A program made the translations under genes and the position numbers. Below, in pieces: positions 1,566-28,394 of a DNA stretch of 29,245 bases (position 1 is the first letter of the stretch; the number at the start of each line of letters is the position of its first letter). Under the pieces are notes generated by a model. The model did not search any database and was not told where the DNA came from. It saw nothing but the letters and a program-made list of their open reading frames with translations. This DNA is from Candidatus Lloydbacteria bacterium RIFCSPHIGHO2_02_FULL_50_18 (GTDB taxonomy: Bacteria; Patescibacteriota; Minisyncoccia; Phycocordibacterales; UBA6899): the NCBI GenBank assembly GCA_001821395.1, contig MHLM01000007.1:1-29245 (forward strand), given 5' to 3'.

Positions 1566-1793
1566 GGGAAAAAGTCTACGTGGAATCTCGAAAACACGCA
1601 AGAAGCCGAACGAAGGATTATCGCCCACGAATTTCCAATAACCTGTTCACAATGATATAAAAACCGCCTAGCACATGCGTGTGTGTGCCGACGGTTTTGG
1701 ACCATCAAAAGCCTTCGGACTACCAAAATCACAAAACTCAACAGCTTAAACCACAGAATTGCGAGTAACGCTTTTGTACGTTAGTATGCCCTC

Positions 1794-2969
1794 ATGCGTA
1801 TTCTATCTATAGAGACAAGCTGCGACGAGACCGCCATCGCGATCATCGAGACAACGAGCGACCTGCCTCATTGCGCCTTTAAGATACTCGCAAATCAAAC
1901 ACTGACACAGATCGAACTGCACAAACAGTACGGCGGAGTATTCCCCATGATGGCGAAACGCGAACATGCGCGCACACTCGTACCGCTCCTCAAGGTCGCG
2001 CTCAAAGAAGCCGGGCTGTACAAAGAAACAAGCAGGCATGTCATCGAAAGCCCGCTACGGAAGGAGTTTGAACACATGCTCCTGCGAGAGCCGGAGCTCT
2101 ATGCGCAATTCATCGCCGATGTCCCGAACTGGGACCCGCCGCAGATCGACATGATCGCAGTCACGAGCGGCCCCGGACTCGAACCTGCGCTGTGGGTCGG
2201 TATCAATTTTGCGAAAGCGCTTTCACTCGTTTGGAAGACCCCGGTAATCCCGATCAATCACATGGAAGGCCACATGCTCACACCACTGCTTGAACCGACG
2301 GCGGACGGTATGCGACTAATGGAGACGCTCTTCCCCGTCCTCGGCCTACTCGTCTCAGGAGGACATACCGAGCTCGTGCTGATGAAGACATGGGGTACGT
2401 ACGAACTCCTCGGCGAAACAAAGGACGATGCGGTGGGCGAGGCATTTGATAAGGTCGCACGCATCCTCGGACTTCCCTATCCCGGCGGACCCGAGATCGC
2501 ACGACTAGCGCTTCTTGGCACGGGCGGAAAATACACACTTCCCCGTCCGATGCTTCATGCTGAGAACTTCGACTTTTCTTTTTCCGGGCTGAAAACGGCA
2601 GTGCTCTATCTGGCCAAAGATATCGGCGTCCTCTCCGACGAGCAAAAACAAGATATTGCGCGTGAATTTGAAGAAGCATGCGCGGAGGTGCTCACGAAAA
2701 AGACTCGTCGTGCATCGGAAGAATACGGCGCACGAATGATCGTCGTCGGCGGTGGGGTTTCCGCGAATAAGAGACTTCGGGATACGCTCGTAGAAACGAT
2801 GCGGAACGAAGGAAGTAGCGTACCAGTCTATTTTCCGGGTGCAACATTGTCGACCGATAATGCACTCATGATCGCGATCGCCGCGGCGACGAGACAAGGA
2901 CAAAAACCGCAGTCACTCGACCACATCATCGCCAACGGAAATTGGCGCATCACAAGCGTACTCACCTAA
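1794..2969 (+). CDS. tsaD: tRNA N6-adenosine threonylcarbamoyltransferase TsaD (Kae1/Gcp family)
   Basis: N-terminus MRILSIETSCDETAIAII, an HMEGH motif and an SGGV...N C-terminal region. At 391 aa it is longer than typical, with an insertion after about aa 85. Confidence 0.85.
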   Translation: MRILSIETSCDETAIAIIETTSDLPHCAFKILANQTLTQIELHKQYGGVFPMMAKREHARTLVPLLKVALKEAGLYKETSRHVIESPLRKEFEHMLLREPELYAQFIADVPNWDPPQIDMIAVTSGPGLEPALWVGINFAKALSLVWKTPVIPINHMEGHMLTPLLEPTADGMRLMETLFPVLGLLVSGGHTELVLMKTWGTYELLGETKDDAVGEAFDKVARILGLPYPGGPEIARLALLGTGGKYTLPRPMLHAENFDFSFSGLKTAVLYLAKDIGVLSDEQKQDIAREFEEACAEVLTKKTRRASEEYGARMIVVGGGVSANKRLRDTLVETMRNEGSSVPVYFPGATLSTDNALMIAIAAATRQGQKPQSLDHIIANGNWRITSVLT

Positions 2970-2975
2970 TTAAAA

Positions 2976-2998
2976 AACCGCCACAACGGCGGTTTTTT
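2976..2998. terminator. bidirectional rho-independent terminator between tsaD and the giant gene
   Basis: A-tract, stem ccgcc(2978-2982)/ggcgg(2988-2992) with loop acaac, then T6 (2993-2998). It lies between convergent genes. Confidence 0.6.
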
Positions 2999-3020
2999 AA
3001 TTCTTGGTGATATACCGAAT

Positions 3021-6000
3021 TTATTTTACGTCGACCTCATCGATCGTATTGCGTCTCTTCAAGTACAGTCTCGTGAGCAGGAGTGTAAGGATGACAAGCA
3101 CGATGAGGAAATAAACTGAACTATCTGAAAGATGCAGTTTGTCCGATACTGACCCGACCACAGCGGCAAGTCCGCGCTTCGTGCTTGCACCAGCGACGAT
3201 CCCTTCTTCTTTAGTGACACTCGGATCAGTCTGCGTTCCTGAAAGCTCACCTCCCACATGCGGCATTGTTGCCAACAGGTCGGACAGCGCAAGCCTCCCA
3301 CGATTAACGAGCTTCGGTTCCGGTTTTTCCTTTTCATTCACGTCTATGGCTGCGAACACCCCTTCATTGCCGTTATTGACGCTTACCCCATTAGAAGCTC
3401 CATCGTTCGTATTCATTCCCACAAGAGGTAGTACGGAGGTTGTCGTACTGCCTTCTCTGTGGATCTTGTTGATAAGATCTCGGAATGCCGCAACCTCACT
3501 CACCTGCAAAGACGTCAGTGGAAATTCTTGCTTACAATAGAGCTCATTGACCTTCTTTTGTGTTGTGTAATACACATACCCCGTATTGCCCCGTAAATTC
3601 CAGATCGAAAGCACATCGACAGCGTACCTGTCTTGGAATGCGCGCACCGCGGCATCGGTAGTCGTATCGAAGAATCCGTTGACATCGAGCGTCGTGAATC
3701 CTTCGTAATTCCTGAGAAACGTCTGAAGCTTCGTCACTTCAACCGGATTGTTGTTTGCACCAAGCCTCATGTATGCATTGAGATATGAACACTCCGTTGA
3801 TTCACCGAGCACCGCACCCTGCGTCAGCTCAATTCCGATCGCACCCTCCGTGTCGGTCGTTGAGATCGGACGGAAATATGTCGAAACACCGGAAGGTATT
3901 CCCTCGATAGTGACGCTATGTGTCGTCGAGGCAATTGTGTCGGTCGCAGTAGAGAGATCGTATCCATAGAGCGGAGATGCTCCGAGACTCAAGACGGGTA
4001 GAAGTCCGTACGTCACGCGACTGGTCGCAGCGATGTTGGTATCCCAGGTCACCGTCACGGTCGTTGTGCCGGTGCTGGCAAGATGTTCATTGAATATCGC
4101 AAGCGTGACCGATCCCCCCCCGCAGTTAACTGTACAACCACCTCCACCGGGGACAACATTAACCGTACGCGTGACGGGTGTCGCGGCATGACCCTGTGCA
4201 TCAGCAACATTATAGGAAAGTGTATATGCACCGATCACACTTGCATTAACCAAACCACTGACAACAATACTCGAGGTAATGTCTCCGTCTTCCGGATCAT
4301 GCGCTGTTGCCCCGGGGTCAGCAAAGGTCGTATCCATGGTGATGCTCATTGGATCGGCACCAAGGAGCGTGAGCGTCGGACCCGTGTCGCGCTCATCATT
4401 ATCTTGCGGTGAATCACAGCCCGGATCTCGTGGGAAGTCTGCAAATCCGTCGCCATCGTTATCGCTCCCGTCTGAGCACGCTGCAGGAGGCTCGCCGCCA
4501 CAATTTTGCGTACACACGGCGGGAGTAACGTTCACTGTGCGCGACTGTGTGTCTGCCGCAACATCCTGCGAATCAGTGGCATTGTACTCGATCACATATG
4601 CACCTGCGACCGCCGTATTTACGGTACCAAAAATGACGAGCTTCCCGTCGATCTGTCCGTCTTCCTGATCGTGTACGGTTGCATTCGGTTCTCCATAAGA
4701 TGCGCCAACAACGAGATTCATTACGATGTCACCCAACAGCGTGATCATCGGCTTTGCATTTTCGCTATCGTCTTCCGAGGAACTACAACCCGGATCGAGC
4801 GGAAAATCGGTCAACTCATCTCCGTCATTGTCCCTTCCGTCAGAGCAACTTGTAACAACTCTTACGGTACGTATTTTTGTATCAGCGGCGAGACCCTTTG
4901 CATCTGCTGCGTCATAGGTAACCGTGTAAGTACCGAGCACGTTTGTATCAACGACACCCGTCGTCACGAGCGTGATTGCTCCTTCTTCAGGATCAATAGC
5001 CGTTGCGCTCGGATCAATGAATGTCACACCAAGATGGATCTCGAATGGATTGTCACCGAGCACGGTGATGACCGGCTGCTCATTCTCATCGTTATCCTCC
5101 GAAGAGTCACATCCTGCGTCCCGAACCACCTCAATGTTTCCTGAAAAGTCGACATGACCGTCACCATCATTATCGATACCATCATTACACTCCGTAACGG
5201 GAGGGGTCACGTTCACAATGCGCGTCTTTTCAGCGGCTGCAAGCCCCTTCGAATCTGAAACATTATAGTGAAGCGTGTATGAACCAACAATAGACGTATC
5301 AACGGTGTCCGTCATTAAAATACTTGCAGCAGGGATGACACCATCCTCTTCATCAAATGCCGTTGCACCGATATCGGTAAACGTACCACCCTGCGTAATA
5401 CTAAAGGGATTTGCTCCGACCACGGTAATAACGGGAGCGTTGTTCTCATCATTATCATTCGGACCTTCGCATCCTAGATCTCCACCGGCAAAGTCGGTCT
5501 TTCCGTCATGATCATTATCCTTCCCGTCAGCACACGCTGCGACGACGCGAACGATGCGCGTCTTCGTGTCAGCTGAGATATTCAGTGAATCGGTTGCATT
5601 ATAAGTGATCGTGTAATTGTTAAGGACATTTGTATCAAGGACACCCGTCGTCACCAGCTTTGAGAGCGTAATGTCTCCGTCTTCCGGGTCAACCGCAATT
5701 GCTCCTTCATCAGCGTAGGCATCACCAAGCGTAACAATAGCGGGGTCCGCTCCGATGACGGTGATGACCGGCTGCTCATTCTCATCATTATCCTCCGGGC
5801 CCTCACAGCCAGCGTCACCTCCGACGAAATCGGTCTCGCTGTCGTTGTCGTTGTCTTTCCCGTCGCGACATTGCGGTTTATTTGATTCGGTATTCAAGAA
5901 ATTTTGCCCCGCCAATACTGCACCCGGATCAAGATTCAAAAAATAACATCCGTTATACATTGAGCTGACCGGTGACGTCTCCGTCCATCCGCTCCGAGCG

Positions 6001-7970: not shown

Positions 7971-7979
7971 TGATATAAT
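7971..7979 (+). promoter_or_regulatory. extended -10 promoter (TGATATAAT) of valS, apparently leaderless
   Basis: TGATATAAT ends 6 nt before the valS ATG at 7986, and there is no Shine-Dalgarno site. Confidence 0.4.
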
Positions 7980-7985
7980 TCCGGA

Positions 7986-10181
7986 ATGGATGATAAATTT
8001 CTGACCCCATACAAGCCCGAGGAGACTGAAGAGAAAGTATACAAAGCGTGGCTCGATTCGGGAGTATTCAATCCCGATATTTGTATACAAAAAGGAATCA
8101 CAAAAAATACGGCGGAAACTTTTTCAATGGTCCTTCCTCCGCCAAACGTTACCGGCATACTGCACATGGGTCATGCGGCAATGATCGCGATCGAAGACAT
8201 CATTGTGCGATACGAGCGCATGAACGGAAAAAGAACACTCTGGATCCCCGGGACTGACCATGCCGCGATCGCAACACAATCAAAAGTCGAAAAGATCATC
8301 GAAAAGGAAGGGACGAACAAACATAAACTGGGGCGTGATGCATTCATGATTCGCGTTGAACAGTTCGCGCAAGAAAGTCATGACACGATCGTCAACCAAA
8401 TAAAAAAAATGGGCGCATCGATTGACTGGAGTCGCGAAGCGTTTACGCTTGATGAGAAGCGTAGTCTTGCCGTCCGCACCGCATTCAAGCGCATGTATGA
8501 CGATGGACTCATCTATCGCAGCGCACGCATTGTGAACTGGGACCCGAAAGGACAGACGACGATCTCTGATGATGAGATCGTTCACGAAGAGCGAAAGGCG
8601 ACGATGTATACATTTCGCTATTGGAAAGACTTCCCTATCGCGATCTCAACCACGCGTCCTGAAACAAAAGTCGGCGATGTTGCGGTCGCAGTGCATCCCG
8701 ACGATGCGCGCTACAGCAAGTTTGTCGGACAAATTTTTTCCGGTGAGTTCTGCGGTGTGCCGCTCCATATCACTATTGTTGCAGATGAGTCCGTCGAGAA
8801 AGATTTTGGTACCGGTGCACTTGGTGTCACTCCTGCACACAGTCAGATCGACTGGGAGATCGCTGCGCGGCACAAGCTTTCTCACAAGCAGGTCATCAAT
8901 GAGTATGCGAAGATGATCGTCGGCGACGAACGCCTCATGGGGAAGAAGGTCGGTGAGGCGCGTACCGCCATTGTTGAATGGATTCGCGCAGAGGGTCTTA
9001 TGGAAAAAGACGAAGAAGTGACACAAAATGTCGCAACGGCAGAGCGCACCGGCGGCATTATCGAGCCGCTTCCAAAATTGCAGTGGTGGATCGACGTTGA
9101 AAAAAATTTCGCCATGAAGGGCGATGGGATACCCGGTATCACAAAGGGGCAAAATGCCACACTCAAGGAAGTGATGACTAAGGCGGTCGCAGCGCATGCG
9201 ATCACCATTCTCCCCGAGCGTTTCGAAAAAACGTACTTCCAATGGATCGATAATCTTCGCCCATGGTGCATATCGCGTCAGATATGGTATGGACACCGAA
9301 TCCCCGTCTGGTACAAGGACGAAGAAGTATACTGCGGGATAGAAGCACCAACAGGAGCGGGGTGGACCCAGGATGAGGATACCCTCGATACGTGGTTCTC
9401 TTCCGGACTCTGGTCATTCTCGACCCTCGGTTGGCCGAACATGGAGGCCAAAGATCTCCAGGACTATCATCCGACCAACCTGCTTGAAACAGGGTATGAC
9501 ATCATTTTCTTTTGGGTTGCACGCATGATACTCATGTCCGGATATCACCTCGGCACCGTCCCCTTCCGCACCGTGTATCTTCATGGACTTGTCCGAGACG
9601 CAAAAGGAAAGAAGATGAGCAAGTCACTCGGTAATGCGATCGACCCACTTGAAATGATCGAAAAATATGGCGCGGACGCGACGAGACTTTCTGTCATCAT
9701 CGGGGCAGGACCGGGTTCGGACGTCAGCCTTGCTGAAGACAAAATACGCGGCTATAAAAAATATACGAACAAGATCTGGAATATCGCTCGCTTCATTCTT
9801 TCAAATACTGAAGGGGTGGACTTGTCAACAAAACCGACGCTCACCGCTCGTGAGGTAGAGATATTGTCTGAATTCAATGCGGTGATCGCATACACCGATC
9901 TGCACATACGAGAATTCAAGCTCCACCTGGCGGGAGAAAAGCTCTACGACTACACGTGGCATATCTTTGCGGATATTATTCTCGAAGAGAGCAAGGAAGC
10001 GCTGCTTTCCGATGATAGTGCCGTAAGTACTTCACGCAAATGGCTACTTCGGCACATCTTTGAAGAACTATTAAAATTGCAACACCCCTTCATGCCATTC
10101 GTAACCGAAGAGATATGGGGTTCACTCCCAAACAGAAAACAACCGCTCATTATTACTCCGTGGCCAAAGCAGGCAATATAA
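7986..10181 (+). CDS. valS: valine--tRNA ligase (ValRS), lacking the usual C-terminal coiled-coil domain
   Basis: PPPNVTGILHMGHA (ValRS-type HIGH region), KMSKS, WCISRQ, and an editing-domain segment. The 731-aa protein ends right after the anticodon-binding region. Confidence 0.8.
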   Translation: MDDKFLTPYKPEETEEKVYKAWLDSGVFNPDICIQKGITKNTAETFSMVLPPPNVTGILHMGHAAMIAIEDIIVRYERMNGKRTLWIPGTDHAAIATQSKVEKIIEKEGTNKHKLGRDAFMIRVEQFAQESHDTIVNQIKKMGASIDWSREAFTLDEKRSLAVRTAFKRMYDDGLIYRSARIVNWDPKGQTTISDDEIVHEERKATMYTFRYWKDFPIAISTTRPETKVGDVAVAVHPDDARYSKFVGQIFSGEFCGVPLHITIVADESVEKDFGTGALGVTPAHSQIDWEIAARHKLSHKQVINEYAKMIVGDERLMGKKVGEARTAIVEWIRAEGLMEKDEEVTQNVATAERTGGIIEPLPKLQWWIDVEKNFAMKGDGIPGITKGQNATLKEVMTKAVAAHAITILPERFEKTYFQWIDNLRPWCISRQIWYGHRIPVWYKDEEVYCGIEAPTGAGWTQDEDTLDTWFSSGLWSFSTLGWPNMEAKDLQDYHPTNLLETGYDIIFFWVARMILMSGYHLGTVPFRTVYLHGLVRDAKGKKMSKSLGNAIDPLEMIEKYGADATRLSVIIGAGPGSDVSLAEDKIRGYKKYTNKIWNIARFILSNTEGVDLSTKPTLTAREVEILSEFNAVIAYTDLHIREFKLHLAGEKLYDYTWHIFADIILEESKEALLSDDSAVSTSRKWLLRHIFEELLKLQHPFMPFVTEEIWGSLPNRKQPLIITPWPKQAI

Positions 10182-10222
10182 GACCGAGAGTGCACGATGT
10201 TATTTGTAAAAACCAATAGAGA

Positions 10223-10975: not shown

Positions 10976-10977
10976 AT

Positions 10978-11558: not shown

Positions 11559-11957
11559 CTAATTTGGATCCTGCGTCGGAAGCGAATTGCCGTATAAACT
11601 GCGATACTCGACAGGGCGACCGGACTCTCTCGCCCGAGTGATCCCCAGTACCATACCGGCAAAGATACCCCGATCGACATAGACCGCCGTTGCATTTGCA
11701 TGCTCACCCCATGCCAATCCTGCGCTGATCCCCAGCTCACGATCCACGGGATCCTTATCGTCAAGGACCCCTTGTTGAGTGTAGAGCAAATGACTTGCAT
11801 AAGGCGCCTCGCGGCGCATAAGTGCATCATGCATACACGCTCGAGCATACGTGATATTTGCTTCCAGTTCTTCGTAACACGCACCCCGATAGGGACTCTC
11901 AATGATAACGAGTCGAAAAGATCTCATTCGAAACCCCACGGTAATCTCTTTTATCAT
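11559..11957 (-). CDS. hypothetical protein; faint resemblance to DUF4406/nucleoside 2-deoxyribosyltransferase-like fold
   Basis: 132-aa ORF. The LVIIESPYRG segment resembles the YxxGP N-terminal motif of that fold, but this is weak. A TAAATT then 6 nt then ATG arrangement sits at 11957. An alternative ATG at 11927 follows a GGGG Shine-Dalgarno-like site. Confidence 0.4.
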   Translation of the reverse strand: MIKEITVGFRMRSFRLVIIESPYRGACYEELEANITYARACMHDALMRREAPYASHLLYTQQGVLDDKDPVDRELGISAGLAWGEHANATAVYVDRGIFAGMVLGITRARESGRPVEYRSLYGNSLPTQDPN

Positions 11958-12042
11958 CCTAACAATTTACCCACGAAACACCAGAAAACCTCAATCGCTG
12001 TGCTTTTCAACCCTTCAAACTCTTTCAGAGTTTGTCCTCGGC

Positions 12043-12286: not shown

Positions 12287-12571
12287 TTAGCGAACTTTAT
12301 CAAGAAGACCCTGGAGATTCGGTAAAGACGCGGCTCCCGAATCAAGTGTCGAAATAGTATGCACGAGTTTTTGGTATGTCTCAAGATATTTCACCAAATA
12401 GGGCTGTACGAAGTAATACGACCAACCCAATACACCAAGGATCACGAGCCAATAGATAAAGGTAAATATCCGCCCCCACAGCATGCTTCGGTGCATTCCA
12501 CGGAGAATGCGGTTATTTTCCTTTTCGATATCGAGAAGTTTGGTCAATGTGTCATGGTCTGTTTCAGGCAT
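12287..12571 (-). CDS. hypothetical small membrane protein
   Basis: One predicted TM helix (IFTFIYWLVILGVLGW). The ATG at 12571 is preceded by TATACT and 6 nt, a leaderless-type arrangement. The ORF-track start at 12577 is a TTG. Confidence 0.45.
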   Translation of the reverse strand: MPETDHDTLTKLLDIEKENNRILRGMHRSMLWGRIFTFIYWLVILGVLGWSYYFVQPYLVKYLETYQKLVHTISTLDSGAASLPNLQGLLDKVR

Positions 12572-12614
12572 AAACAAAGTATATCAAGAAATAATTGCAC
12601 AACAAACCCTACGT

Positions 12615-13019: not shown

Positions 13020-13268
13020 CTATGCGGGAACGATACCCAGTAACTCTTGGAGTTTCGATTTATTGAATCCTACTATAATATCCTTATCAATGATGATGAC
13101 GGGGACCCCCATTTGTCCGCTCTTCTCAATCATCTCCTGACGCTTCGCAAGATCTTTCCCTACGTCAAATTCCTGGAATTCGACATTATTTTTTTGAAAA
13201 AATTCTTTCGCCAGCTTGCAATAACCACATGATTCTGTCGAATAAATTTGAACGCTTTTCATAGGCAT
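13020..13268 (-). CDS. glutaredoxin/NrdH-like thioredoxin-fold protein
   Basis: 82-aa ORF with a CGYC redox motif near the N-terminus (VQIYSTESCGYCKLAKEF) and a conserved GVPVIII..D..IVGF segment. Confidence 0.75.
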   Translation of the reverse strand: MPMKSVQIYSTESCGYCKLAKEFFQKNNVEFQEFDVGKDLAKRQEMIEKSGQMGVPVIIIDKDIIVGFNKSKLQELLGIVPA

Positions 13269-13295
13269 CTGGAGTTACCGATTAATCGTGAACGC

Positions 13296-13304
13296 ATTAT
13301 AGCA
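13296..13304 (-). promoter_or_regulatory. extended -10 promoter TGCTATAAT (within the conserved motif TCTCGTGCTATAAT)
   Basis: Plus strand attatagca is TGCTATAAT on the minus strand, about 28 nt upstream of the grx-like start. The same 14-mer recurs at 22054-22067. Confidence 0.45.
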
Positions 13305-13466: not shown

Positions 13467-13841
13467 TTAAGGGTAGGGATGCTTTTGCACTATCTCAATA
13501 TTTTCCACCTGAGACAGTTCATCAAAGATGCGTGATACGATCCTCAGCGCCTCAGATGGATCAGCTCCTTCTTTCCAATCAGTACCGCCCTGATTTGCCA
13601 TTCCAGAACCATTTTGCTGTTCATCAATAAGCTTTATCCCACCGGCAGGAATATTGTCTTCCCAATGATTATCGGTATAGTAAATGGAATAATCAACGCA
13701 CGCCACCCCCCTTCTGTCTTCGGAGTCTCCGATACATATCGTAACTCCTTTAAGTTTTTCTCCGTACAGTTCCTTGATTGGGTCAAGGTCTGAACCGTTG
13801 CCATAAGTGCCGCCTCTCATGATCCGAGCGAATTTCGACAT
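13467..13841 (-). CDS. hypothetical protein
   Basis: The start was chosen at MSKFARIM, which is preceded by GGAAGGAGAG 8 nt upstream. There is no recognisable family, and the composition is Gly/Asp-rich. Confidence 0.5.
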   Translation of the reverse strand: MSKFARIMRGGTYGNGSDLDPIKELYGEKLKGVTICIGDSEDRRGVACVDYSIYYTDNHWEDNIPAGGIKLIDEQQNGSGMANQGGTDWKEGADPSEALRIVSRIFDELSQVENIEIVQKHPYP

Positions 13842-13877
13842 TTGAGTCTCTCCTTCCAAGGTTTGATTTTCTTTTTT

Positions 13878-13886
13878 GATTATGCA
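13878..13886 (-). promoter_or_regulatory. candidate -10 (TGCATAATC) for the hypothetical gene at 13841
   Basis: It matches the TGCATAAT element used by the rnpB promoter in this window and lies about 37 nt upstream of the start. Confidence 0.35.
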
Positions 13887-14010
13887 CCATCAAACAAATA
13901 TGTCAAGGCTTGATTAAAATCTTTGCTTAACAATTATCTAGACGTTTAAGCTCAAAAAAATATATTTCAACATCAAAAACACTTCACCTTACTAATACAC
14001 AACGAGACGA

Positions 14011-14392: not shown

Positions 14393-14794
14393 TCAATTCG
14401 ACAGACCGACCGCACTCAGAACTTTTTGTGTGACCCCTGGTGTTTCGTCAGGCACTGTGACCGTATGAACCTTCTCAGCTGTTGGGTCAGCAACGATAAT
14501 AACATTTTCCCCCTCTTTCGCAACCATGAATCTGTCCCGGATCTCCCCTTCGATGCCCCGCTCTGTGGAAAGATCAAGAATATCCAGAGAAAGCTCTTTT
14601 TCTCTAGCCTCTAGCTCTGTTAAACGTTGTGTCACAACATCAGTTTTATCCGTTGCGTCCCGGCTCTTCTCATACATCCCCCAGGCACCATTGGCAACCA
14701 TAACAAAAACAACGGCAAGAACGATGATGGTCGGTTTTGCGTACATTGCCCTTCTTACACGATTACGCTCTTTAAAATCTAGCATGCGAGACAT
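14393..14794 (-). CDS. septum formation initiator family protein (FtsB/DivIC-like)
   Basis: Short cytoplasmic N-terminus, one TM helix, a coiled coil (LTELEAREKELSLDILDL), then IEGEIRDRFMVAKEGENVIIV, which matches the DivIC/FtsB C-terminal motif. TATACT then 6 nt then ATG suggests a leaderless transcript. Confidence 0.55.
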   Translation of the reverse strand: MSRMLDFKERNRVRRAMYAKPTIIVLAVVFVMVANGAWGMYEKSRDATDKTDVVTQRLTELEAREKELSLDILDLSTERGIEGEIRDRFMVAKEGENVIIVADPTAEKVHTVTVPDETPGVTQKVLSAVGLSN

Positions 14795-15088
14795 GACTAT
14801 AGTATACCCCGTAGTGAGCCCTCACCGATAATCGAGGGTTGTGTATTTCTCGCCTAGCCAGTAAAATATCGATCGCATACAAGCTCTGGCGCATTAGGTC
14901 TACTACGAGGTATACTATTGAACAATCACCAAAAACATATGTCACTATTTCTCCGAGAAAAAAAGCACAAAAAATGGTTCAATCTTGTCTGGACCATTGT
15001 GGGTATCATGGTCATAAGTAGTATGGTACTCCTCTATCTCCCCGCCTTCCTCTAATAATACCATCTCCAAGAAACCTCTGAACACCAA

Positions 15089-15334: not shown

Positions 15335-17248
15335 TTACTCGTCGGAGCGGATCATCTTGATGAACACATCCGCCGGAATGTTCACATTCCCCATCTCCTG
15401 CATCTTCTTCTTCCCCTTCTTTTGTTTCTCGCGCAATTTCATCTTACGCGTAATGTCGCCACCATAGAGATATCCCGTCACATCTTTTTTGAGTGCAGAA
15501 AGTCGCTCGGACGAAATGATACGACCCATCGCCTTCGCCTGCATCTTGACCACGATCATCTGGCGAGGCATCGACTTGGCCAATTTTTTTACCGCAGCCT
15601 CCGCCTCCTCTTGTGCACGTCTTCGCGAGACAACACGAGAGAATGCCGTCACGGCTTCATCGTTCACGAGAATATCAAGCCGTGTTACATCAGCATCACG
15701 GAAGCCGCCTATCTCGTATGAGAGACTTGCAAAACCGGATGAAATAGACTTGAGCTTATCAAAAAAGCTCCGCATAAGCTCGCGCAAAGGCATCTTAAAT
15801 TCAACCTTAAAACGATTCTCTCCAAAGATCTCCGTGTTCCCCGTCTCTGCCTCATGCTCGAACAAGAGCTGTGTCACCGCACCGAGATAGTCCGGTGGTA
15901 AAATGATCTCACCATCTATCCAGGGTTCGCGCACCGAAACGATCTCGCCATCCTCAGGAAAAAGTGACGGTGAATAGATAATATCGGTTTTTTTGGTACT
16001 TTTCCGAGTGACCTCGTAGGTGATTGTCGGGGTTGTTACCACGAGCTCAAGGTCAAATTCTCGACGTAAGCGCTCCGTAATGATCTCGAGATGGAGCATC
16101 CCAAGAAAGCCACAACGAAATCCGCGACCCAGATTGCCTGATGCCTCCTCTTCAAAGGTCAGCGACGAATCCGAGAGTTGAAGACGCTGTAGCGCAAGGC
16201 GCAACGTCGGAAGATCATCCTGGCTCTCCGGGTACACGGACGCCCACACAACCGGACGGGGCTTTCCGTAGCCAGGAAGTGCAGGGAGCGGATTACGATA
16301 AAAGGTGACCGTATCTCCGACTGCGGCAATACCCGGACGTTTAATTCCGGTCACAATGTAGCCGATCTCTCCGTGAGAAAGGTCGGGCTTCGCAACCTCA
16401 CCAGGGGCAAAGTATCCTGTTTCGAGCGCAAAAAATTTCTCCTTTGCCGCTGAAAAAGTAAGCTCTGAACCTTTCGTGATCGTACCGTCGAGAACGCGCA
16501 CGTAAAGAATAACTCCCCGATGATTGGAATATGAAAAATCAAAGATAAGCGCACGCGCACTCTTCGTGCCGGGAAATTCTTCTTCGGGTGGCGGGATACG
16601 GAGAATGATCGCCTCAAGCAGCGCGTCGACCCCCTCCCCCGTTCTTCCGGAAACGAGCAGTACGCTCTCAGGCGGAACGGAAAGTAGAGCAACGACCTCA
16701 TCGCGCACTTCGTCGACGCGAGCAAGTGGTGAGTCTATTTTTGAGAGGACCGGGATGATGGTGAGCCCATGCTCACGCGCCATGGCGAGCGTAGTGAGCG
16801 TTTGTGCCTGTACCCCCTGCGTCGCATCCACGAGGAGAAGACATCCCTCGACCGCCTTGAGCGCTCGCGAAACCTCATACGAAAAATCGATATGCCCCGG
16901 TGTGTCGATGAGGTTCAGGAGGTAGTGTTCCCCCTTATATTCGTGGTACATACGCACGGGCTGCATCTTGATGGTGATACCGCGCTCGCGCTCAAGTTCC
17001 ATGGAATCAAGAACTTGTTCATGCATTTTTCGCTTTTCGATCGTATGCGTCGTCTCCAGCATGCGATCAGCAAGCGTTGACTTCCCGTGGTCGATATGGG
17101 CTATGATACTAAAGTTTCTGATCAGATTTTTGGACATGGGGCTTGTCATCAGATGACGAACTTTTTTGTTGCGGGGTCCCTGCGACTCGGTCACCATATA
17201 TGAATATGTCTCCCTCATCGCTTTCCCCGCGCCGCAAATTTCATTCAT
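15335..17248 (-). CDS. lepA: translation elongation factor 4 (LepA)
   Basis: NFSIIAHIDHGKSTLADR G1 motif, DTPGHIDF, NKID, EF-G-like domains and a LepA C-terminal domain. The N-terminal extension is uncertain. The ATG at 17248 has TGCTAGTAT 15 nt upstream. Alternative ATGs lie at 17218, 17197 and 17137. Confidence 0.85.
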   Translation of the reverse strand: MNEICGAGKAMRETYSYMVTESQGPRNKKVRHLMTSPMSKNLIRNFSIIAHIDHGKSTLADRMLETTHTIEKRKMHEQVLDSMELERERGITIKMQPVRMYHEYKGEHYLLNLIDTPGHIDFSYEVSRALKAVEGCLLLVDATQGVQAQTLTTLAMAREHGLTIIPVLSKIDSPLARVDEVRDEVVALLSVPPESVLLVSGRTGEGVDALLEAIILRIPPPEEEFPGTKSARALIFDFSYSNHRGVILYVRVLDGTITKGSELTFSAAKEKFFALETGYFAPGEVAKPDLSHGEIGYIVTGIKRPGIAAVGDTVTFYRNPLPALPGYGKPRPVVWASVYPESQDDLPTLRLALQRLQLSDSSLTFEEEASGNLGRGFRCGFLGMLHLEIITERLRREFDLELVVTTPTITYEVTRKSTKKTDIIYSPSLFPEDGEIVSVREPWIDGEIILPPDYLGAVTQLLFEHEAETGNTEIFGENRFKVEFKMPLRELMRSFFDKLKSISSGFASLSYEIGGFRDADVTRLDILVNDEAVTAFSRVVSRRRAQEEAEAAVKKLAKSMPRQMIVVKMQAKAMGRIISSERLSALKKDVTGYLYGGDITRKMKLREKQKKGKKKMQEMGNVNIPADVFIKMIRSDE

Positions 17249-17298
17249 CTGAAGATAAGCCCAATACTAGCACATATAACCCCGAAGAGAACCGTATA

Positions 17299-17326
17299 TG
17301 AAAAAACGAGGCATATGCCTCGTTCC
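17299..17326 (-). terminator. terminator of the small membrane-protein gene
   Basis: aacgaggcat|atgcctcgtt is a perfect 10-bp stem (17305-17324) with an A6 run on the plus strand, which is a U-run on the minus transcript. Confidence 0.55.
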
Positions 17327-17345
17327 CCAATTTAGTAAATGCTTT

Positions 17346-17711
17346 TCAGTGTGAATGGCAACCACAACAGCCGCCTCCCACACTCTCCGTATCAACGTCA
17401 TCCCACTGTGCGCTTGCAGTTGCCAGCAGAGCCACACGGAAGGCAGAGCGACGCCGTAACACCTTGTTGATACCCGCATTAGTTAACACAAAGTCTTGAG
17501 ACACCAACCGAATATACACCAAGAGATATGCGATGATGAACATCACGAATATTGGTGCGACATAGGCACCAGGAACGAATCCCAAGATGACCAGCGTCAG
17601 AAGCGGAGACAATAGCAGGCAGAGCCACTGCGAGACCTGCTTTTCATAGTCCACAGTGTTGTTAAGTTGACATGCCAGCTGAGAAACGAAATCCCTGCGA
17701 ATTTGATTCAT
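17346..17711 (-). CDS. hypothetical membrane protein with C-terminal GGGCCGCHSH tail
   Basis: Two predicted TM helices. It ends in a Cys/His-rich tail, CCGCHSH, reminiscent of metal-binding tails. It is the last gene of the murJ operon. Confidence 0.45.
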   Translation of the reverse strand: MNQIRRDFVSQLACQLNNTVDYEKQVSQWLCLLLSPLLTLVILGFVPGAYVAPIFVMFIIAYLLVYIRLVSQDFVLTNAGINKVLRRRSAFRVALLATASAQWDDVDTESVGGGCCGCHSH

Positions 17712-19462: not shown

Positions 19463-19481
19463 GATGGCCCGTTAGAAGATA

Positions 19482-21983: not shown

Positions 21984-22053
21984 AAATTTTTTTGATAAAC
22001 AAATAATAAATACGCACAAAATCTCTTCCTCCAAAGAGAGTAGATTACGCATG

Positions 22054-22062
22054 ATTATAGCA
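22054..22062 (-). promoter_or_regulatory. extended -10 TGCTATAAT for the TPR-membrane/murJ operon
   Basis: This is the same TCTCGTGCTATAAT 14-mer seen at 13296. It lies about 70 nt upstream of the ATG at 21983. Confidence 0.4.
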
Positions 22063-22200: not shown

Positions 22201-22203
22201 CAT

Positions 22204-22553
22204 GCACCTTGTATCGATAAGCCGAATTCTGTCCCCAAAACGCACGCTTTGGGTGGTATCCATTTATCTAGGCTCTCGGTTACCCGAAAGCTCAAGCGGC
22301 ACTTCCCAACTTACGCCAGGACACGGCCTTGCACCCAGGTAAGGATTTAGCCGTTTCACCCCCGCATTTCGGCGGGATTATCCATCGGATAAATCCGGAC
22401 GGATCCCATTTCTTTCGATCTGGGCGTCACTGCTCGCACCTCTATGGTTGCCCACGACGGGCGTTACCCGCTACCCTCTTACCACTTTCATGGTGAGCGT
22501 TCGGACTTTCCTCACTTCCCTTGCGAGAAGCGCGGATACCTAATACAAGGCTT
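22204..22553 (-). ncRNA. rnpB: RNase P RNA (bacterial RnpB)
   Basis: The minus-strand sequence contains GAGGAAAGTCCGAAC (P4 5' strand) and GGGGACAGAATTCGGCTTATCG (the universal ACAGAAnnCGGCUUA P4 3' strand). A P1 helix forms between CCTTGTAT and ATACAAGG. It also has GGTAACGCCCG and TAAATGGATACCACC segments. The region is GC-rich and non-coding, with only spurious ORFs. Confidence 0.8.
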
Positions 22554-22557
22554 TCTG

Positions 22558-22585
22558 ATTATGCAATAAAATCAATATTTTGCAA
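22558..22585 (-). promoter_or_regulatory. rnpB promoter
   Basis: Minus strand: TTGCAA, 16 nt, CATAAT, then 7 nt to the first nucleotide of P1. Confidence 0.5.
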
Positions 22586-24236: not shown

Positions 24237-24249
24237 CTGGTGATAAAGA

Positions 24250-24285
24250 AAAGAACCAAGACAAGAACCTTGGTTCTTTATTTTT
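24250..24285. terminator. terminator (ccaag-core hairpin)
   Basis: gaaccaag(24253-24260)/cttggttc(24269-24276) followed by tttattttt. It lies between convergent genes. Confidence 0.6.
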
Positions 24286-24315
24286 ACCGTCCCAAAAGAT
24301 TACTATGAGATAATC

Positions 24316-25281
24316 CTAGCGGATACCCGTTTGCGCCTTGATCCGATCCTGAAGTATCTTGATCTGCGCGAGTAATTTCTGGATCAGGATCGCGCGTTGC
24401 TCTTGCTCAGAATAGAAAGATTTATATTCAAGCAGCACGCCGGAGGAGATTCCGCGATTGAGGGCCTCGCGCGTGGCAGGACCCACGATACCGACAGGAT
24501 CGATCATTTGCCGTTTCTGAAAAGCGATCACCGCCTCGCGGGTGAGCGGACCGAAATACCCTGTTATGTTTTCCTTTTGCAATAATCCCAGCACCTTGAG
24601 GACTATCTGTAGCTGACGGACCTCTTCTCCGCTTGAGCCCAGCTCAAGCATCGTCTTAAAAATATCATTCGGACGACCGTCAACCACCCTCTCGAGCTGT
24701 AGTCGCATATCGGGAGTGATCCCAAGCTTTGCATTGCTCGACCGATAGACGCCGGTCGACGCGATCAGACTCGGATACGGATCAATGGCCTGCCGATTGG
24801 GATCATGTATCTCGAAGTGTAAGTGCGACACGGTGTTCTCCGCATTCCCGCTATCACCGACCCACCCCAAGAGCTGCCCCCTTGTCACCGACTGCCCGCG
24901 ATCAAGACCTGATGCATAGGCATTCATCTCTCCACCTTTTCCGTCATCGGTGCCGGGGGTATCATTGTTCAAATGAAAATAAAGGTATTGGTATCCTTCA
25001 GAGTCGACAATAGATATCTCATATCCCCACGCCGCTTCGGGTGAAATGATAAAATTCACCGTTCCGTTCACTGCCGAAACAACAGGGGTCATCTTTGCGG
25101 CAATGATGTCATTACCCAGATGTTTTCTCGTTCCTCCGCCTCGCGGTGCTCCAAAATCGCTGAAAAAATTGTTCGGTCCGTTCACGGGAAACTCGATCGA
25201 GCGGACAACCTCTGCATTCACGGAGAGCGGAATAAGCAGCAGAGAGAGGGCAATATAAAATAAGTAGAGATGTTTCATCAT
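24316..25281 (-). CDS. secreted M23 family metallopeptidase with C-terminal peptidoglycan-binding domain
   Basis: Signal peptide MMKHLYLFYIALSLLLIPLSVNA. HLGNDI and GDSGNAENTVSHLHFEI (HxH) LytM/M23 motifs. A C-terminal PG_binding_1-like segment (GYFGPLTREAVIAFQ). TATAAT then 6 nt then ATG at 25281. Confidence 0.8.
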   Translation of the reverse strand: MMKHLYLFYIALSLLLIPLSVNAEVVRSIEFPVNGPNNFFSDFGAPRGGGTRKHLGNDIIAAKMTPVVSAVNGTVNFIISPEAAWGYEISIVDSEGYQYLYFHLNNDTPGTDDGKGGEMNAYASGLDRGQSVTRGQLLGWVGDSGNAENTVSHLHFEIHDPNRQAIDPYPSLIASTGVYRSSNAKLGITPDMRLQLERVVDGRPNDIFKTMLELGSSGEEVRQLQIVLKVLGLLQKENITGYFGPLTREAVIAFQKRQMIDPVGIVGPATREALNRGISSGVLLEYKSFYSEQEQRAILIQKLLAQIKILQDRIKAQTGIR

Positions 25282-25334
25282 CTTTCCATTATAACCCACG
25301 CGAGCCCCCATTTGCCGTTCACGATCCTTTTATC

Positions 25335-25361
25335 AAAAAACCGCCGATGTTAGTCGGCGGG
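25335..25361 (-). terminator. terminator of hypothetical gene 25370-26290
   Basis: A6 on the plus strand, then ccgccga/tcggcgg stem (25341-25347 and 25354-25360). This gives a U-run on the minus transcript. Confidence 0.6.
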
Positions 25362-25369
25362 ATATAGAA

Positions 25370-26290
25370 CTAAATCTGCGGCAAAGCACTGAAGAGCTTC
25401 ACCCGACGCACCTGAATTTGCGATTGGAAAGATACAGGTCCAAAAAATCGCGAAGTAACTGCCATGTGGTCAGCACCAAAAGCGTCCTTTCCAAAATTCA
25501 CCACCGGCATTTCTCCATTGAAAGTGCTGCCACACGTTGCGAACACACCAGTGAACGACGCGAGGTTTGGCTCGAACTCTCGGATGTCTCTTCTAAAGTG
25601 GTGAGCAGCGTCACGACGATACAAACAATAGGCCACCCAGAGCAGATGCTCGCGGAGAGTCATGCACGACCCTCGATAGCGCCGTTCGTCTCTTATCGAC
25701 GACGGTATCGTTTCAGAAATTTTCGTAGAGAACGACGCGATGTAATTCTCTCGGGGGCGCGCGATATTCAGTGCAGGGTCCCAGAGGTCTCCTTTCAAAT
25801 TCGTAAACTTCCCATTTTTAAAGTCGACTATATCGACGCCATGTTTTTGGATGACCTTAGCGATGTTTTCAATGCAAACCTTTGTCGCTACGCGAATCGG
25901 GGTGACATATGTGTACACCTTTGCATCAGGGAGTCGAACTCGAGAAAAATCAGGATCAACCTGAAATTCATCCGCATAAAATTCACTCCATGGATCAAGA
26001 AATTCGCGATCACGATAACATGCGAGGAACGTGGAGGCACAATGGTAGTCAATTTCGTTTAGGCCATAAGTGCTCAATCGTGCCCGCAACTCTTCGGGGT
26101 GATCGATCAGATGCTGCATCTCCGCCTTTGAAAGTTCTGGTAACACTTGAAGCAATTTGGCATCAAATTCGCGCACCTGTTCCGGACGAGCCGATTGAGA
26201 AACTTCCTTCGATACTTCTGTCGGTTGAGCTGATTGTGAATCTTTCTCTGATACTTCTGGCACTTCTTGCCGTTGAGCTGACTCAGTCAT
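25370..26290 (-). CDS. hypothetical protein with acidic low-complexity N-terminus
   Basis: The start was set at MTESAQ (ATG 26290, AAAGGAG 8 nt upstream). The N-terminal 60 aa are encoded by about 2.5 copies of an imperfect 39-bp tandem repeat (26191-26288). The C-terminal 240 aa show no recognisable family. Confidence 0.5.
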   Translation of the reverse strand: MTESAQRQEVPEVSEKDSQSAQPTEVSKEVSQSARPEQVREFDAKLLQVLPELSKAEMQHLIDHPEELRARLSTYGLNEIDYHCASTFLACYRDREFLDPWSEFYADEFQVDPDFSRVRLPDAKVYTYVTPIRVATKVCIENIAKVIQKHGVDIVDFKNGKFTNLKGDLWDPALNIARPRENYIASFSTKISETIPSSIRDERRYRGSCMTLREHLLWVAYCLYRRDAAHHFRRDIREFEPNLASFTGVFATCGSTFNGEMPVVNFGKDAFGADHMAVTSRFFGPVSFQSQIQVRRVKLFSALPQI

Positions 26291-26562
26291 GAGCTGGACT
26301 CCTTTGGTTGGTTGATGAAAAAGAACCGTGATGAGCGTTGACCCATCACCCACCATATTCAGCTTTTTCAACAATTTGTCAATTCGACGCACGGCACACT
26401 GAAAACCCAGGTGGTACTCATAATATTATCCGACGGCTACCTTTGAAGTTACGTGAAACTGACGAAGGGACGGTTGTCTCGCATTGCACAAAGACGAACT
26501 TTGCATGGAAACCTGCGGTCGAGAAAACAATTGTGCCCTATGAGTATGTGGAGATAAAAACG

Positions 26563-26602
26563 AATTACCTTATAATACGCCATGGCGTATTATAAGGTAA
26601 TT
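26563..26602. repeat. 40-bp perfect palindrome (20-bp arms, no spacer)
   Basis: aattaccttataatacgcca|tggcgtattataaggtaatt. Each arm contains a TATAAT box. It lies in a 465-bp intergenic region. Confidence 0.6.
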
Positions 26603-26799
26603 ATTATCGGAGAGGTTGGGGAAAGAAAACAGGAAGAAAAAATATGTTATTCATCCTTTTTTTCACCTTGAGAGTTGAATTGCGTATTTCATCTGCCTTC
26701 CATTTACATTTGCCCTACTGAGCTAAATGATTGAAGTAAGCCACCCAAACAGGCGGCTTTTTTATGATCAAACGACAGAACACGAACGTGATTCGCATA

Positions 26800-26827
26800 T
26801 TGCATTCTTGGTTCTTCCGAGTAGCAT
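26800..26827 (+). promoter_or_regulatory. promoter of small membrane protein gene B (TTGCAT, 16 nt, TAGCAT)
   Basis: Paralogous to the promoter at 24002-24029. Confidence 0.4.
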
Positions 26828-26857
26828 GAAGCTCGGGTCTGTTTCTGGGGAGCAAAA

Positions 26858-27046
26858 ATGAGTATCGGTAGCATCACTGGTATCTGGCTGTTAATCGGTT
26901 TGATATGCTCGTTCGTGATCGCAAGGGCGCATGGCCCTGCTTTGCGTATCATGAGAGAGGAACCTGGGACTACTGCTGTTTTGGTTCTTCTCGGTCCGAT
27001 CAGCCTGCTCGTTCTTTTGCTGATGTGTTTCATGAGCGATGGATAG
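26858..27046 (+). CDS. small two-helix membrane protein (paralog B)
   Basis: 62 aa: MSIGSITGIWLLIGLICSFVIARAH..AVLVLLGPISLLVLLLMCF. The upstream 70 nt are about 75% identical to the copy A leader. A GGGGAG Shine-Dalgarno site is present. Confidence 0.5.
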   Translation: MSIGSITGIWLLIGLICSFVIARAHGPALRIMREEPGTTAVLVLLGPISLLVLLLMCFMSDG

Positions 27047-27056
27047 ACATGGTAAT

Positions 27057-27086
27057 ACAACCAAGGCAAATGCCTTGGTTTTTTCA
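27057..27086. terminator. bidirectional terminator (ccaagg-core hairpin)
   Basis: aaccaaggca aa tgccttggtt (27059-27080) followed by tttt. It overlaps the stop codon of the convergent minus-strand ORF. Confidence 0.6.
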
Positions 27087-27290
27087 CAACGGGAGATCTT
27101 CTGTTCGATTCCTGTCGTCCAACTCCCTACTTTTCTCCTTTTTTGCCTTGAGGGATCTGAGTCTGCTCTCCGCAAGCGAGGTCCAGCTGAGCACCCCGAT
27201 AGCAGAACGCACCGCCTCCGTCTCCTCCTCATTCAGAACCCCCTTCTCAATAAGCCCCAAGAGTACCTCGATCGCCTTTTTATCGTCCAT
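27084..27290 (-). CDS. hypothetical small protein
   Basis: 68 to 74 aa (MDDKKAIEVLLGLIEKG...), charged C-terminus. The start is uncertain: 27290 is preceded by TACATT and 6 nt, and 27308 by GAGGG. Confidence 0.35.
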   Translation of the reverse strand: MDDKKAIEVLLGLIEKGVLNEEETEAVRSAIGVLSWTSLAESRLRSLKAKKEKSRELDDRNRTEDLPL

Positions 27291-27425
27291 GAGATAAATG
27301 TAGCACATCGATCACGTTGATCCCTCATTTTTCGAGAGGTTCGGAGGGACTTGTGTATTTTCAAATTACATACTATAACGCAATTAGCTCAGTCGTCCTT
27401 CAACCTCCAACACATAAGGAGATCT

Positions 27426-27890
27426 ATGATGAAGATGTTCATTCAAACCACCAGAAACCTTGGATTGGCGCTGGTATCGTTGATCGCAGTGATCGCATTT
27501 GCAGCCGGCCCCGTGCGAGGACCATTCTCGATCGGCGATGGTGATGCTCTTGTACGTACGATCACCAAGTCTGACTCGATGGAGCCGTTCACGGACATGG
27601 AGACAGCGCGCGTATCATTCTTTTCGGTGGCCGTGTTCAAAAAAAACACTGCCTTCGCAAAGAAGGGTGAGATGGCGCTCATCCTTTCAACCGTCACATG
27701 CACGGACAAAACAATCCGACGCACAATGATCGAGAAGGTGCCGGTCGGAAGCAGTACGGCAATACGACTTTTTCAAAATGACGAAGGGATCGCCCAGTCG
27801 ATGCAAGCACAAAGATTCAGGAAGCCCACATCGGCCGAGCTATCGGAAGTAGAGAGCGTTTGTCGAGACTACTGGCGGCCGACGAATTAA
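27426..27890 (+). CDS. hypothetical secreted protein
   Basis: The start was set at MMKMFIQ... (AAGGAGA 6 nt upstream). Signal peptide LGLALVSLIAVIAFAAGP. No recognised family. Confidence 0.5.
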   Translation: MMKMFIQTTRNLGLALVSLIAVIAFAAGPVRGPFSIGDGDALVRTITKSDSMEPFTDMETARVSFFSVAVFKKNTAFAKKGEMALILSTVTCTDKTIRRTMIEKVPVGSSTAIRLFQNDEGIAQSMQAQRFRKPTSAELSEVESVCRDYWRPTN

Positions 27891-27894
27891 ACAT

Positions 27895-27937
27895 AGGGGG
27901 GCGAGAAGAAGGGGTGATATCGATCGCCCCTTTTTTA
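27895..27937 (+). terminator. rho-independent terminator
   Basis: ggggcga...tcgcccc stem (27897-27903 and 27924-27930) followed by T6. Confidence 0.6.
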
Positions 27938-27981
27938 TTTTTTGATACTACAATGCGCGCCACGCAGCAAGTGCCCTCACT

Positions 27982-28287
27982 TCACTGCGTATCTCCGTCA
28001 GTCTTTTTTGGAATACCCCACTGCCAGCGAGGACGTTCACCTTTACGATAGCAAATGAGGAGGAGGACAGTAAGCAACACGAAAGGCAACATAAAGTTAA
28101 AGAAAGTTTCGCGCGTTGATGAATTCTCGTCAAGCGTGAGTGAAAGCCGGAGAAGCGCTGCAACGTACAGCACAATAGCCAACCAGCCCTGCCACGTCAC
28201 GGGAGTCCAACCCCATCCAAACAACTTTCTTTTGAACCAATATCCATGTGGATTATCTTTCAAATATTCAATGTATCGTTTCAGCAT
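27982..28287 (-). CDS. hypothetical membrane protein
   Basis: 101 aa. A Trp-rich N-terminus (YWFKRKLFGWGWTPVTWQGW) followed by two TM helices. An extended -10 TGATAGAAT then 6 nt then ATG. Confidence 0.45.
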   Translation of the reverse strand: MLKRYIEYLKDNPHGYWFKRKLFGWGWTPVTWQGWLAIVLYVAALLRLSLTLDENSSTRETFFNFMLPFVLLTVLLLICYRKGERPRWQWGIPKKTDGDTQ

Positions 28288-28394
28288 AGGTAAATTCTAT
28301 CACGTCGATCCTTTTTTACTGTCCATAAGATCAGTTAAACAGATCAATGGAGCTTAAATCAATGGCGATTATCCCAATTTTCAGCGCACCCCCT

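Follow-up and report, generated by a model that had tools for sequence, protein, structure and literature searches.

Candidate leaderless genes with promoter -10 elements at their start codons in a Candidatus Lloydbacteria genome fragment

Introduction

Zheng et al. 2011 (PMC3160421) described TA-led genes, in which the first T of a TANNNT hexamer lies approximately 12 nucleotides (nt) before the start codon, in Actinobacteria and Deinococcus-Thermus, and GeneMarkS-2 defines its 'group C' by a Pribnow box located 6-8 nt upstream of the start (Lomsadze et al. 2018, PMC6028130). In Mycobacterium tuberculosis, mapping of transcription start sites (TSSs) showed that roughly one gene in four is transcribed from its start codon (Cortes et al. 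2013, PMC3898074). Here we describe a related arrangement in a 29,245-nt stretch of DNA (contig MHLM01000007.1, positions 1 to 29,245; hereafter the window) from Candidatus Lloydbacteria bacterium RIFCSPHIGHO2_02_FULL_50_18, where a first-pass annotation had noted a -10 element (TAnnnT), exactly 6 nt and an ATG at six gene starts and, in weaker form, at two more. Our analysis indicated, with a probability of roughly 0.8, that about half of the transcription units have a -10-dominated sigma-70 promoter at the ATG and would yield leaderless mRNA. In the literature searched, no report of leaderless mRNAs was found for the Candidate Phyla Radiation (CPR), Patescibacteria, Parcubacteria or Saccharibacteria. 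Among Parcubacteria 16S rRNAs, only 48% had a detectable anti-Shine-Dalgarno (anti-SD) motif (Tsurumaki et al. 2022, PMC9297842), and Parcubacteria ribosomes often lack bS21 and have a short bS1 (PMC9297842).

The window resembled the TA-led and group C genes in having TANNNT at a gap of 6-8 nt and no SD, alongside SD-led genes, and in the restriction of this layout to the first genes of operons, which in those systems concerns approximately 25-50% of operons. It differed in the host, a CPR/Parcubacteria genome of 49% GC whose lineage is not named in the main text of those surveys, and in the informative middle of the hexamer (TAtaaT-like). Internal genes, which are SD-led in group C, had no SD in the window. 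As in M. tuberculosis, the TANNNT -10 was dominant with no clear -35, and tRNA synthetase genes, often leaderless in that organism, were represented here by the candidate valS. In contrast, TGn-extended boxes account for 7% of TANNNT promoters in M. tuberculosis versus 4/8 here and approximately 36% in relatives, GTG is used there as freely as ATG whereas only ATG was found among the candidates, and the TSSs were mapped there, while here we infer both the TSS position and the mode of ribosome engagement. The need for AUG at leaderless starts is strict in E. coli and relaxed in mycobacteria.

The TG at -15/-14 combined with a poor -35 is shared with the extended -10 promoters (TGnTATAAT) of E. 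coli and Gram-positive bacteria, in which the TG offsets a weak -35 and the TSS lies 7 nt past the hexamer. Unlike the boxes described here, those promoters normally drive leadered mRNAs containing an SD. The non-SD motifs of group B (Bacteroidetes) are likewise A/T-rich, close to the start codon and without SD, but they precede internal genes too and cannot be promoters, whereas the boxes in the window had promoter features and were absent from internal genes. A motif standing before first and internal genes alike and free of promoter features, as in a group B-type non-SD ribosome-binding site, was not found. The architecture and its proposed mechanism are those known from TA-led and group C genes, with differences in the host lineage, the much higher share of TGn-extended boxes and the SD-less internal genes.

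Results

Placement of the boxes at gene starts

The candidate leaderless starts in the window were the following, the last being an extra candidate absent from the first-pass annotation.

1782..1796, plus strand: tsaD (gene 1794-2969), box TAGTAT 1782-1787, 6-nt gap, ATG 1794
7971..7988, plus strand: valS (gene 7986-10181), TGATATAAT 7971-7979, 6-nt gap, ATG 7986
12569..12586, minus strand: hypothetical gene hyp94 (gene 12287-12571), TGATATACT 12586-12578, 6-nt gap, ATG 12571
14792..14806, minus strand: divIC/ftsB-like gene (gene 14393-14794), TATACT 14806-14801, 6-nt gap, ATG 14794
25279..25293, minus strand: M23 peptidase gene (gene 24316-25281), TATAAT 25293-25288, 6-nt gap, ATG 25281
28285..28302, minus strand: small membrane protein gene (gene 27982-28287), TGATAGAAT 28302-28294, 6-nt gap, ATG 28287
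27288..27305, minus strand: orf68, at first called weaker (gene 27084-27290), TGCTACATT 27305-27297, 6-nt gap, ATG 27290
11955..11969, minus strand: DUF7768 gene, at first called weaker, TAAATT 11969-11964, ATG 11957, start doubtful
1563..1578, minus strand: U32 peptidase gene (gene 315-1565), TAGACT, 7-nt gap, ATG 1565

All eight boxes of the first-pass annotation were present at their coordinates, and its statement that these starts have no SD site also held, as GGAG, GAGG and AGGA were absent at 4-14 nt from 8/8 sites. Each candidate was preceded by a divergent gene, a tRNA, a terminator or a long gap, and was thus first in its transcription unit. When approximately 18-20 transcription units were counted in the window, 8-9 of them were leaderless candidates, the U32 peptidase gene being included and the DUF7768 gene possibly so. 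The start codon was ATG in 9/9 candidates, and TTG was found in an SD-led gene encoding a TPR protein. The leaderless reading was supported in silico at seven of the eight sites by promoter anatomy, a spacing limit, conservation in orthologues, exclusion of SD and the N-termini of the products; the predicted transcripts at these seven are leaderless or have a leader of at most 3 nt.

The pattern could in principle have arisen by selection of ATGs that happen to follow TAnnnT, which is common in DNA of 49% GC. The total of TANNNT-N6-ATG was indeed no higher than in dinucleotide shuffles (11 copies on both strands vs 12.1±3.6), three of the eight starts had been chosen against the longest open reading frame (ORF), and TATAAT-5 nt-ATG occurs on both arms of a palindrome, described below, that is surely no gene start. 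However, 8/11 copies opened ORFs of at least 68 aa, so that, with the copy number at chance level, the placement alone is noteworthy. When starts were defined blind to the motif, as the first ATG of every ORF of at least 80 aa with spurious ORFs included, TANNNT-N6 preceded 6/60 first ATGs vs 5/1043 other ATGs (Fisher p=7.6e-6, or 8e-6 when rounded), and at curated starts the figures were 8/22 vs 3/1081 (Fisher p=1e-12). The histogram of -10-to-ATG distances in the window had one spike, at 6 nt (6 vs a background of 0.8). Four of the eight sites had the extended TGnTAnnnT (7971, 12586, 27305 and 28302), and the extended form TGNTANNNT-N6-ATG occurred five times in the window against 0.95 expected, a number reached in 0/100 shuffles. 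As the motif-blind test, the same spacing spike in independent genomes, the conservation of the box at orthologous starts and the backing of each of three corrected starts by relatives all speak against it, chance is a very improbable explanation. One further match, TGATAAGAT-6 nt-ATG at 3470-3487 on the plus strand, lies antisense within the surface-protein gene and opens an ORF of only 21 codons; it may be either a chance match or an antisense promoter.

Promoter anatomy and spacing in relatives

The comparison set consisted of more than 20 related Parcubacteria contigs (L001, L002 and so on; approximately 250 kb). At the first ATGs of ORFs of at least 80 aa in these relatives, the count of TANNNT at 6 nt was 35, compared with a background of 8.9 (p=3e-11), and a shoulder extended over 7-9 nt. 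In its TGn-extended form, the box occurred 33 times at 6-9 nt vs 3.7 expected, was absent (0) at 4-5 nt and fell to background from 10 nt. This hard lower limit of 6 nt places the A of the ATG at the canonical +1, as the geometry of RNA polymerase predicts. In 91 aligned candidate sites, position -15 was T in 57% and position -14 was G in 52%, and a weak T-T was seen at -35/-34 (approximately 50%), all in canonical register, indicating the anatomy of a sigma-70 promoter and not of a ribosome-binding site. Box and SD excluded each other in the relatives: both were found at 1 ORF, a -10 at 6-9 nt only at 95 and an SD only at 44 (odds ratio 0.06, p=6e-5).

The gene for RNase P RNA was used as a control.

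22546..22566, minus strand: RNase P RNA (RNA 22202-22551), TGCATAAT with hexamer CATAAT 22563-22558, exactly 6 nt to the 5' end

The box and its 6-nt spacing were conserved in L014 (approximately 8060-8084), which suggests that the mature 5' end of the RNase P RNA is the start of the primary transcript, and the promoter scan gave TTGCAA/TTTGCA as its -35. The TGCATAAT box also precedes hyp124. In the relatives, -10-like boxes also preceded tRNAs; several of these boxes were TGn-extended, and their distances varied. Leadered genes, both SD-led and SD-less (the TPR gene, the glutaredoxin gene grx and lepA), had a TGn-extended -10 as well, located 15-35 nt upstream.

An alternative is that the promoters lie further upstream and that TAnnnT is an A/T-rich, unstructured element in the 5' untranslated region (UTR) that loads ribosomes independently of SD, similar to the non-SD motifs of Bacteroidetes and cyanobacteria (GeneMarkS-2 group B/X). 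This organism must be able to initiate translation on leaders independently of SD, as grx, murJ, hsp20, prsW and the surface protein gene are leadered without SD, and the anti-SD has been reported missing from about half of Parcubacteria 16S rRNAs (PMC9297842). A loading element, however, does not explain TG at -15/-14 or TT at -35/-34, promoter features that have no role in ribosome binding, nor the same 6 nt between a -10-like box and RNase P RNA. The box was moreover absent from the three operon-internal genes, the hard lower limit fits the geometry of RNA polymerase, and the M23 peptidase start lies approximately 40 nt past a terminator. A ribosome-loading element is consequently unlikely.

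Under the leaderless reading, a housekeeping sigma-70-type RNA polymerase would read a TAnnnT -10, often TGn-extended, with only a vestigial -35, and with the hexamer ending 6 nt ahead of the start codon, transcription would start at the A of the ATG. The ribosome would engage the 5'-terminal AUG of such an mRNA, devoid of 5' UTR and SD, directly. Leaderless mRNAs elsewhere are bound by 70S ribosomes or by 30S-IF2-fMet-tRNA. Other units would use a promoter 25-40 nt upstream and an AAGGAGG-type SD, and a third set of genes, including all three operon-internal ones, would depend on neither signal.

Conservation of the individual starts

At seven sites (tsaD, valS, hyp94, divIC, M23, orf68 and the membrane protein gene), the N-termini of the products aligned with those of homologues at the box-adjacent ATG. 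For both tsaD and valS, an in-frame stop lies 4-5 codons upstream with no other in-frame start within 40 codons. The TsaD N-terminus MRILSIETSCDE was kept in 8 orthologues, and a -10-like box was found 6-10 nt before the ATG in 4/7 relatives. For valS, the start was readable in 10 related loci, at least 7 of which had a TGn-extended -10 located 6-9 nt upstream of the ATG, and the N-terminus MDDKFLxPYKPEETE was conserved among orthologues. The gene hyp94, located immediately downstream of a tRNA-Arg, had TGnTAnnnT 6-7 nt before the ATG in 8/8 related loci despite diverged flanks, and its orthologues begin at the same MPE/MS residues. A -10 was found 6-9 nt before the ATG of the divIC/ftsB-like gene in 5/5 related loci. 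Across the orthologous starts, the box, often TGn-extended, persisted while spacers and flanking sequences changed.

The M23 box lies approximately 40-45 nt downstream of an intrinsic terminator hairpin (25341-25360), and a -10 was found 6-9 nt upstream of the start in 5/8 related loci. The public gene call begins at ATG 25311 (331 aa), a codon that is ATT in the closest relative (L014), whereas all homologues begin at an M-K/R-hydrophobic signal peptide corresponding to the 25281 start (MMKHL). The 28287 start of the membrane protein fits the N-terminus MLKxYIEYLKDNP and the length (approximately 96-104 aa) of a large family, and a homologue in L032 had TGcTATACT, 6 nt and ATG. For orf68, TGCTACATT-6 nt-ATG was kept in L014, where an in-frame TAA separates the upstream ATG from the equivalent of 27290. 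The correction of start codons against the longer ORFs in the first-pass annotation was therefore backed by relatives at 25281, 27290 and 12571. Public gene calls differed from the starts favored here for at least four genes (M23, orf68, the dehydrogenase gene and the TPR gene).

Two side observations concern these starts. The sequence GGATCnACGTGAT occurs in two exact copies on the minus strand (27311-27323 and 28299-28311), immediately upstream of or overlapping the -10 of orf68 and of the membrane protein gene, with a looser copy before the M23 gene; allowing at most two mismatches, 8 matches were found vs 3.9 expected. The copy before orf68 was not conserved in L014. The motif could be an operator shared by these small genes. 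In L005 (2498-2580), the tsaD ATG lies approximately 7 nt past the 3' end of a tRNA with no promoter box between them, and 3' processing of the tRNA could there generate a near-leaderless tsaD mRNA.

The DUF7768 gene was the eighth site. Its homologues begin 2-6 residues ahead of RLVIIESPY, which corresponds to ATG 11927, 10 codons past 11957. The ORF that begins at the upstream ATG in L023 (86% identical) has only 8 codons and ends with TGA directly before the main ATG, and among other relatives, L024 had TGcTAAAAT 31 nt upstream and L025 had AAGGAGG. A leaderless start at 11957 was thus not supported; TAAATT is probably a promoter, and the productive start is uncertain. These data fit another explanation, in which the boxes are real promoters but some of the 5'-terminal AUGs are unproductive, leaving a short leader or mini-ORF before a downstream protein start: the family N-terminus 10 codons downstream, the 8-codon ORF of L023, the 31-nt leader of L024 and the AAGGAGG of L025 are all as it would have them. 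As a general account it is quite unlikely, since the homologue-aligned N-termini at the other seven sites begin at the box-adjacent ATG and the downstream in-frame starts have no SD, except for weak GAGG cores inside orf68.

For the U32 peptidase gene, the long ORF call begins at GTG 1628, and the N-terminus from ATG 1565 is MISPHNAEIMAPAGS. U32 peptidases typically have an (E)LLAPAG motif near the N-terminus. None of the related loci examined contained an orthologue, so that 1565 is without comparative support.

Several observations weigh against the leaderless reading. The sample is a single 29-kb contig with approximately 22 genes, and no TSS or N-terminal peptide data were found for this organism or any Parcubacterium. 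L001, the closest relative, has its tsaD -10 box 28 nt upstream, showing that the arrangement is evolutionarily labile, and ATG 11957 conflicts with the DUF7768 family N-terminus. The spacing was 8-9 nt in many relatives, which implies a leader of 1-3 nt unless the TSS shifts. A two-hexamer sigma-70 scan found 0/8 sites, their -35 being too weak, and did not exceed chance overall, although it did pick up the promoters of SD-led genes and of RNase P RNA. As it missed all eight sites and performed at chance level overall, the scan is of no use for or against -10-only promoters.

SD-led genes

Six genes in the window were SD-led (13841, 17711, 22019, 23833, 26290 and 27426). The strong SD sites reported earlier for 23833, 26290, 27426 and 13841 were confirmed, with AAGGAG(G) located 5-9 nt before the ATG in all four. 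These AAGGAGG sites indicate that the organism keeps an anti-SD. The following starts show the layout.

13841..13906, minus strand: SD-led gene, TTGACA-16-CATAAT 13906-13879, leader of approximately 30 nt, GGAAGGAGAG (GAAGGAG), ATG 13841
22017..22062, minus strand: SD-led TPR gene, TGCTATAAT 22062-22054, leader, GGAGG, TTG 22019; same layout in L014
23831..23899, minus strand: SD-led Glu/Leu/Phe/Val-dehydrogenase-like gene, TTTACA-16-TAGCAT, AAGGAGG, ATG 23833
26288..26310, minus strand: SD-led hypothetical gene (306 aa), AAAGGAG, ATG 26290
27405..27428, plus strand: SD-led hypothetical gene (154 aa), TAAGGAG, ATG 27426

The start of the long ORF of the TPR gene, TTG 22295, falls inside the RNase P RNA gene. 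A likely gene for a 62-aa membrane protein at 26858-27046 (plus strand) has a GGGGAG SD, and a 62-aa product is listed in the public calls; it converges on orf68 at a bidirectional terminator (27052-27087).

Genes with neither signal

The proposal of two coexisting modes of initiation was upheld as far as box-led and SD-led genes are concerned, but it did not cover a third set of approximately seven genes with neither an ATG-proximal -10 nor an SD: the surface protein gene (7649), prsW, hsp20, grx, lepA, murJ and orf147. The operon-internal genes prsW, hsp20 and murJ were without box and without SD in 3/3 cases (10182-10222, 10976-10977 and 19463-19481), which suggests coupling of termination and reinitiation or another SD-independent mode. 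The hsp20 gene begins 2 nt past the prsW stop. In L002 and L003, the prsW ATG lies at the very end of the valS alignment, so that the genes abut or overlap, and TGTTATTTG was conserved 13-16 nt before prsW in the window, L001 and L004.

The glutaredoxin gene (13262-13304, minus strand) had TGCTATAAT approximately 27-33 nt upstream and a leader without SD. This leader (attaa..c.gtaac.c) was conserved in the orthologues of L001, L004 and L012, and could be a small regulatory leader or an element of SD-independent initiation. For lepA, TGCTAGTAT lies 15 nt before ATG 17248, and the conserved LepA N-terminus corresponds to approximately codons 34-38; none of the internal ATGs of lepA had a clear start signal. 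The start of orf147 (28550) was considered as leaderless and left out of the count, as the AATTAT/TAATTA box 6-7 nt upstream is non-canonical and the conserved upstream region contains a mini-ORF. Approximately 85 nt upstream of orf147 were conserved (window 28470-28549; L014 2530-2610). The mini-ORF, MKNDERNARRMNS, has 13-14 codons and ends 7 nt before the ATG, with mostly synonymous substitutions between the window and L014, and could encode an upstream leader peptide of orf147.

A perfect palindrome with false -10/ATG pairs

A perfect 40-bp palindrome is located at 26563-26602, consisting of AATTACCTTATAATACGCCA and TGGCGTATTATAAGGTAATT and followed by CGTTTTTAT, a T-run, on the minus strand. 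Each arm contains TATAAT-5 nt-ATG. In L014, the palindrome is still perfect through four mirrored (compensatory) substitutions. An interpretation as face-to-face promoters or mini-genes was ruled out by these compensatory changes, the T-run and a terminator-like call. The element is most likely a long-stem intrinsic terminator or an RNA hairpin, and it is an example of a false-positive -10/ATG pair. Its flanks in the window, approximately 0.4 kb and 1.2 kb, were absent from L014; they include the 306-aa gene 25370-26290.

Genomic context

The synteny of ValRS, TsaD and their neighbors with metagenome-assembled genomes (MAGs) of Parcubacteria GW2011_GWA2_47_7, Lloydbacteria, Kaiserbacteria and 'Patescibacteria group', together with 100% identity of two of its proteins to proteins of 'Candidatus Lloydbacteria bacterium RIFCSPHIGHO2_01_FULL', identifies the window as a fragment of a CPR/Patescibacteria genome, a Candidatus Lloydbacteria MAG (Parcubacteria/Paceibacteria) from groundwater. 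It encodes a U32 peptidase, TsaD, a 1542-aa Ig-like/VWA surface protein, ValRS, PrsW, Hsp20, a DUF7768 protein, glutaredoxin, a DivIC/FtsB-like protein, LepA, MurJ, a TPR protein, a Glu/Leu/Phe/Val-dehydrogenase-like protein and an M23 peptidase, together with several small hypothetical proteins, three tRNAs and RNase P RNA (22202-22551, minus strand).

The region upstream of lepA and an adjacent ORF (window approximately 17130-17300 and 17267-17479) were 100% identical to contig LCOM01000023 (L001 17717-17896). LepA was 93% identical between the two, whereas the other genes in common were 61-85% identical, which suggests either that the region was exchanged recently or that the assembly is shared or chimeric at the contig end. 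A related Parcubacteria contig, L018, contains a group I intron at 434-675 (Rfam RF00028, 66 bits).

Discussion

Beyond the window, first genes throughout Paceibacteria/Parcubacteria, and perhaps more widely in CPR, may use leaderless initiation as one of their major modes, a tentative extension to which we give somewhat less than an even chance. If true, this would be a third large bacterial clade with approximately 40-50% leaderless units, and Prodigal-style annotation of CPR MAGs would systematically misplace N-termini. Hardly any CPR/Patescibacteria have been cultured, and the gene models available for them are produced by automatic callers that expect a ribosome-binding site. Should about half of the units be leaderless, CPR MAGs would contain many mis-annotated N-termini, signal peptides and intergenic 'regulatory' regions, and the -10-to-ATG rule would offer a cheap fix for CPR gene starts. 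The finding also bears on whether leaderless initiation is ancestral, as CPR is a deep and very large radiation, and it offers a hypothesis on how lineages that lost the anti-SD or bS21 may still initiate translation. The evolutionary angle is modest, and the value of the finding would be mainly practical, in the annotation of CPR genomes.

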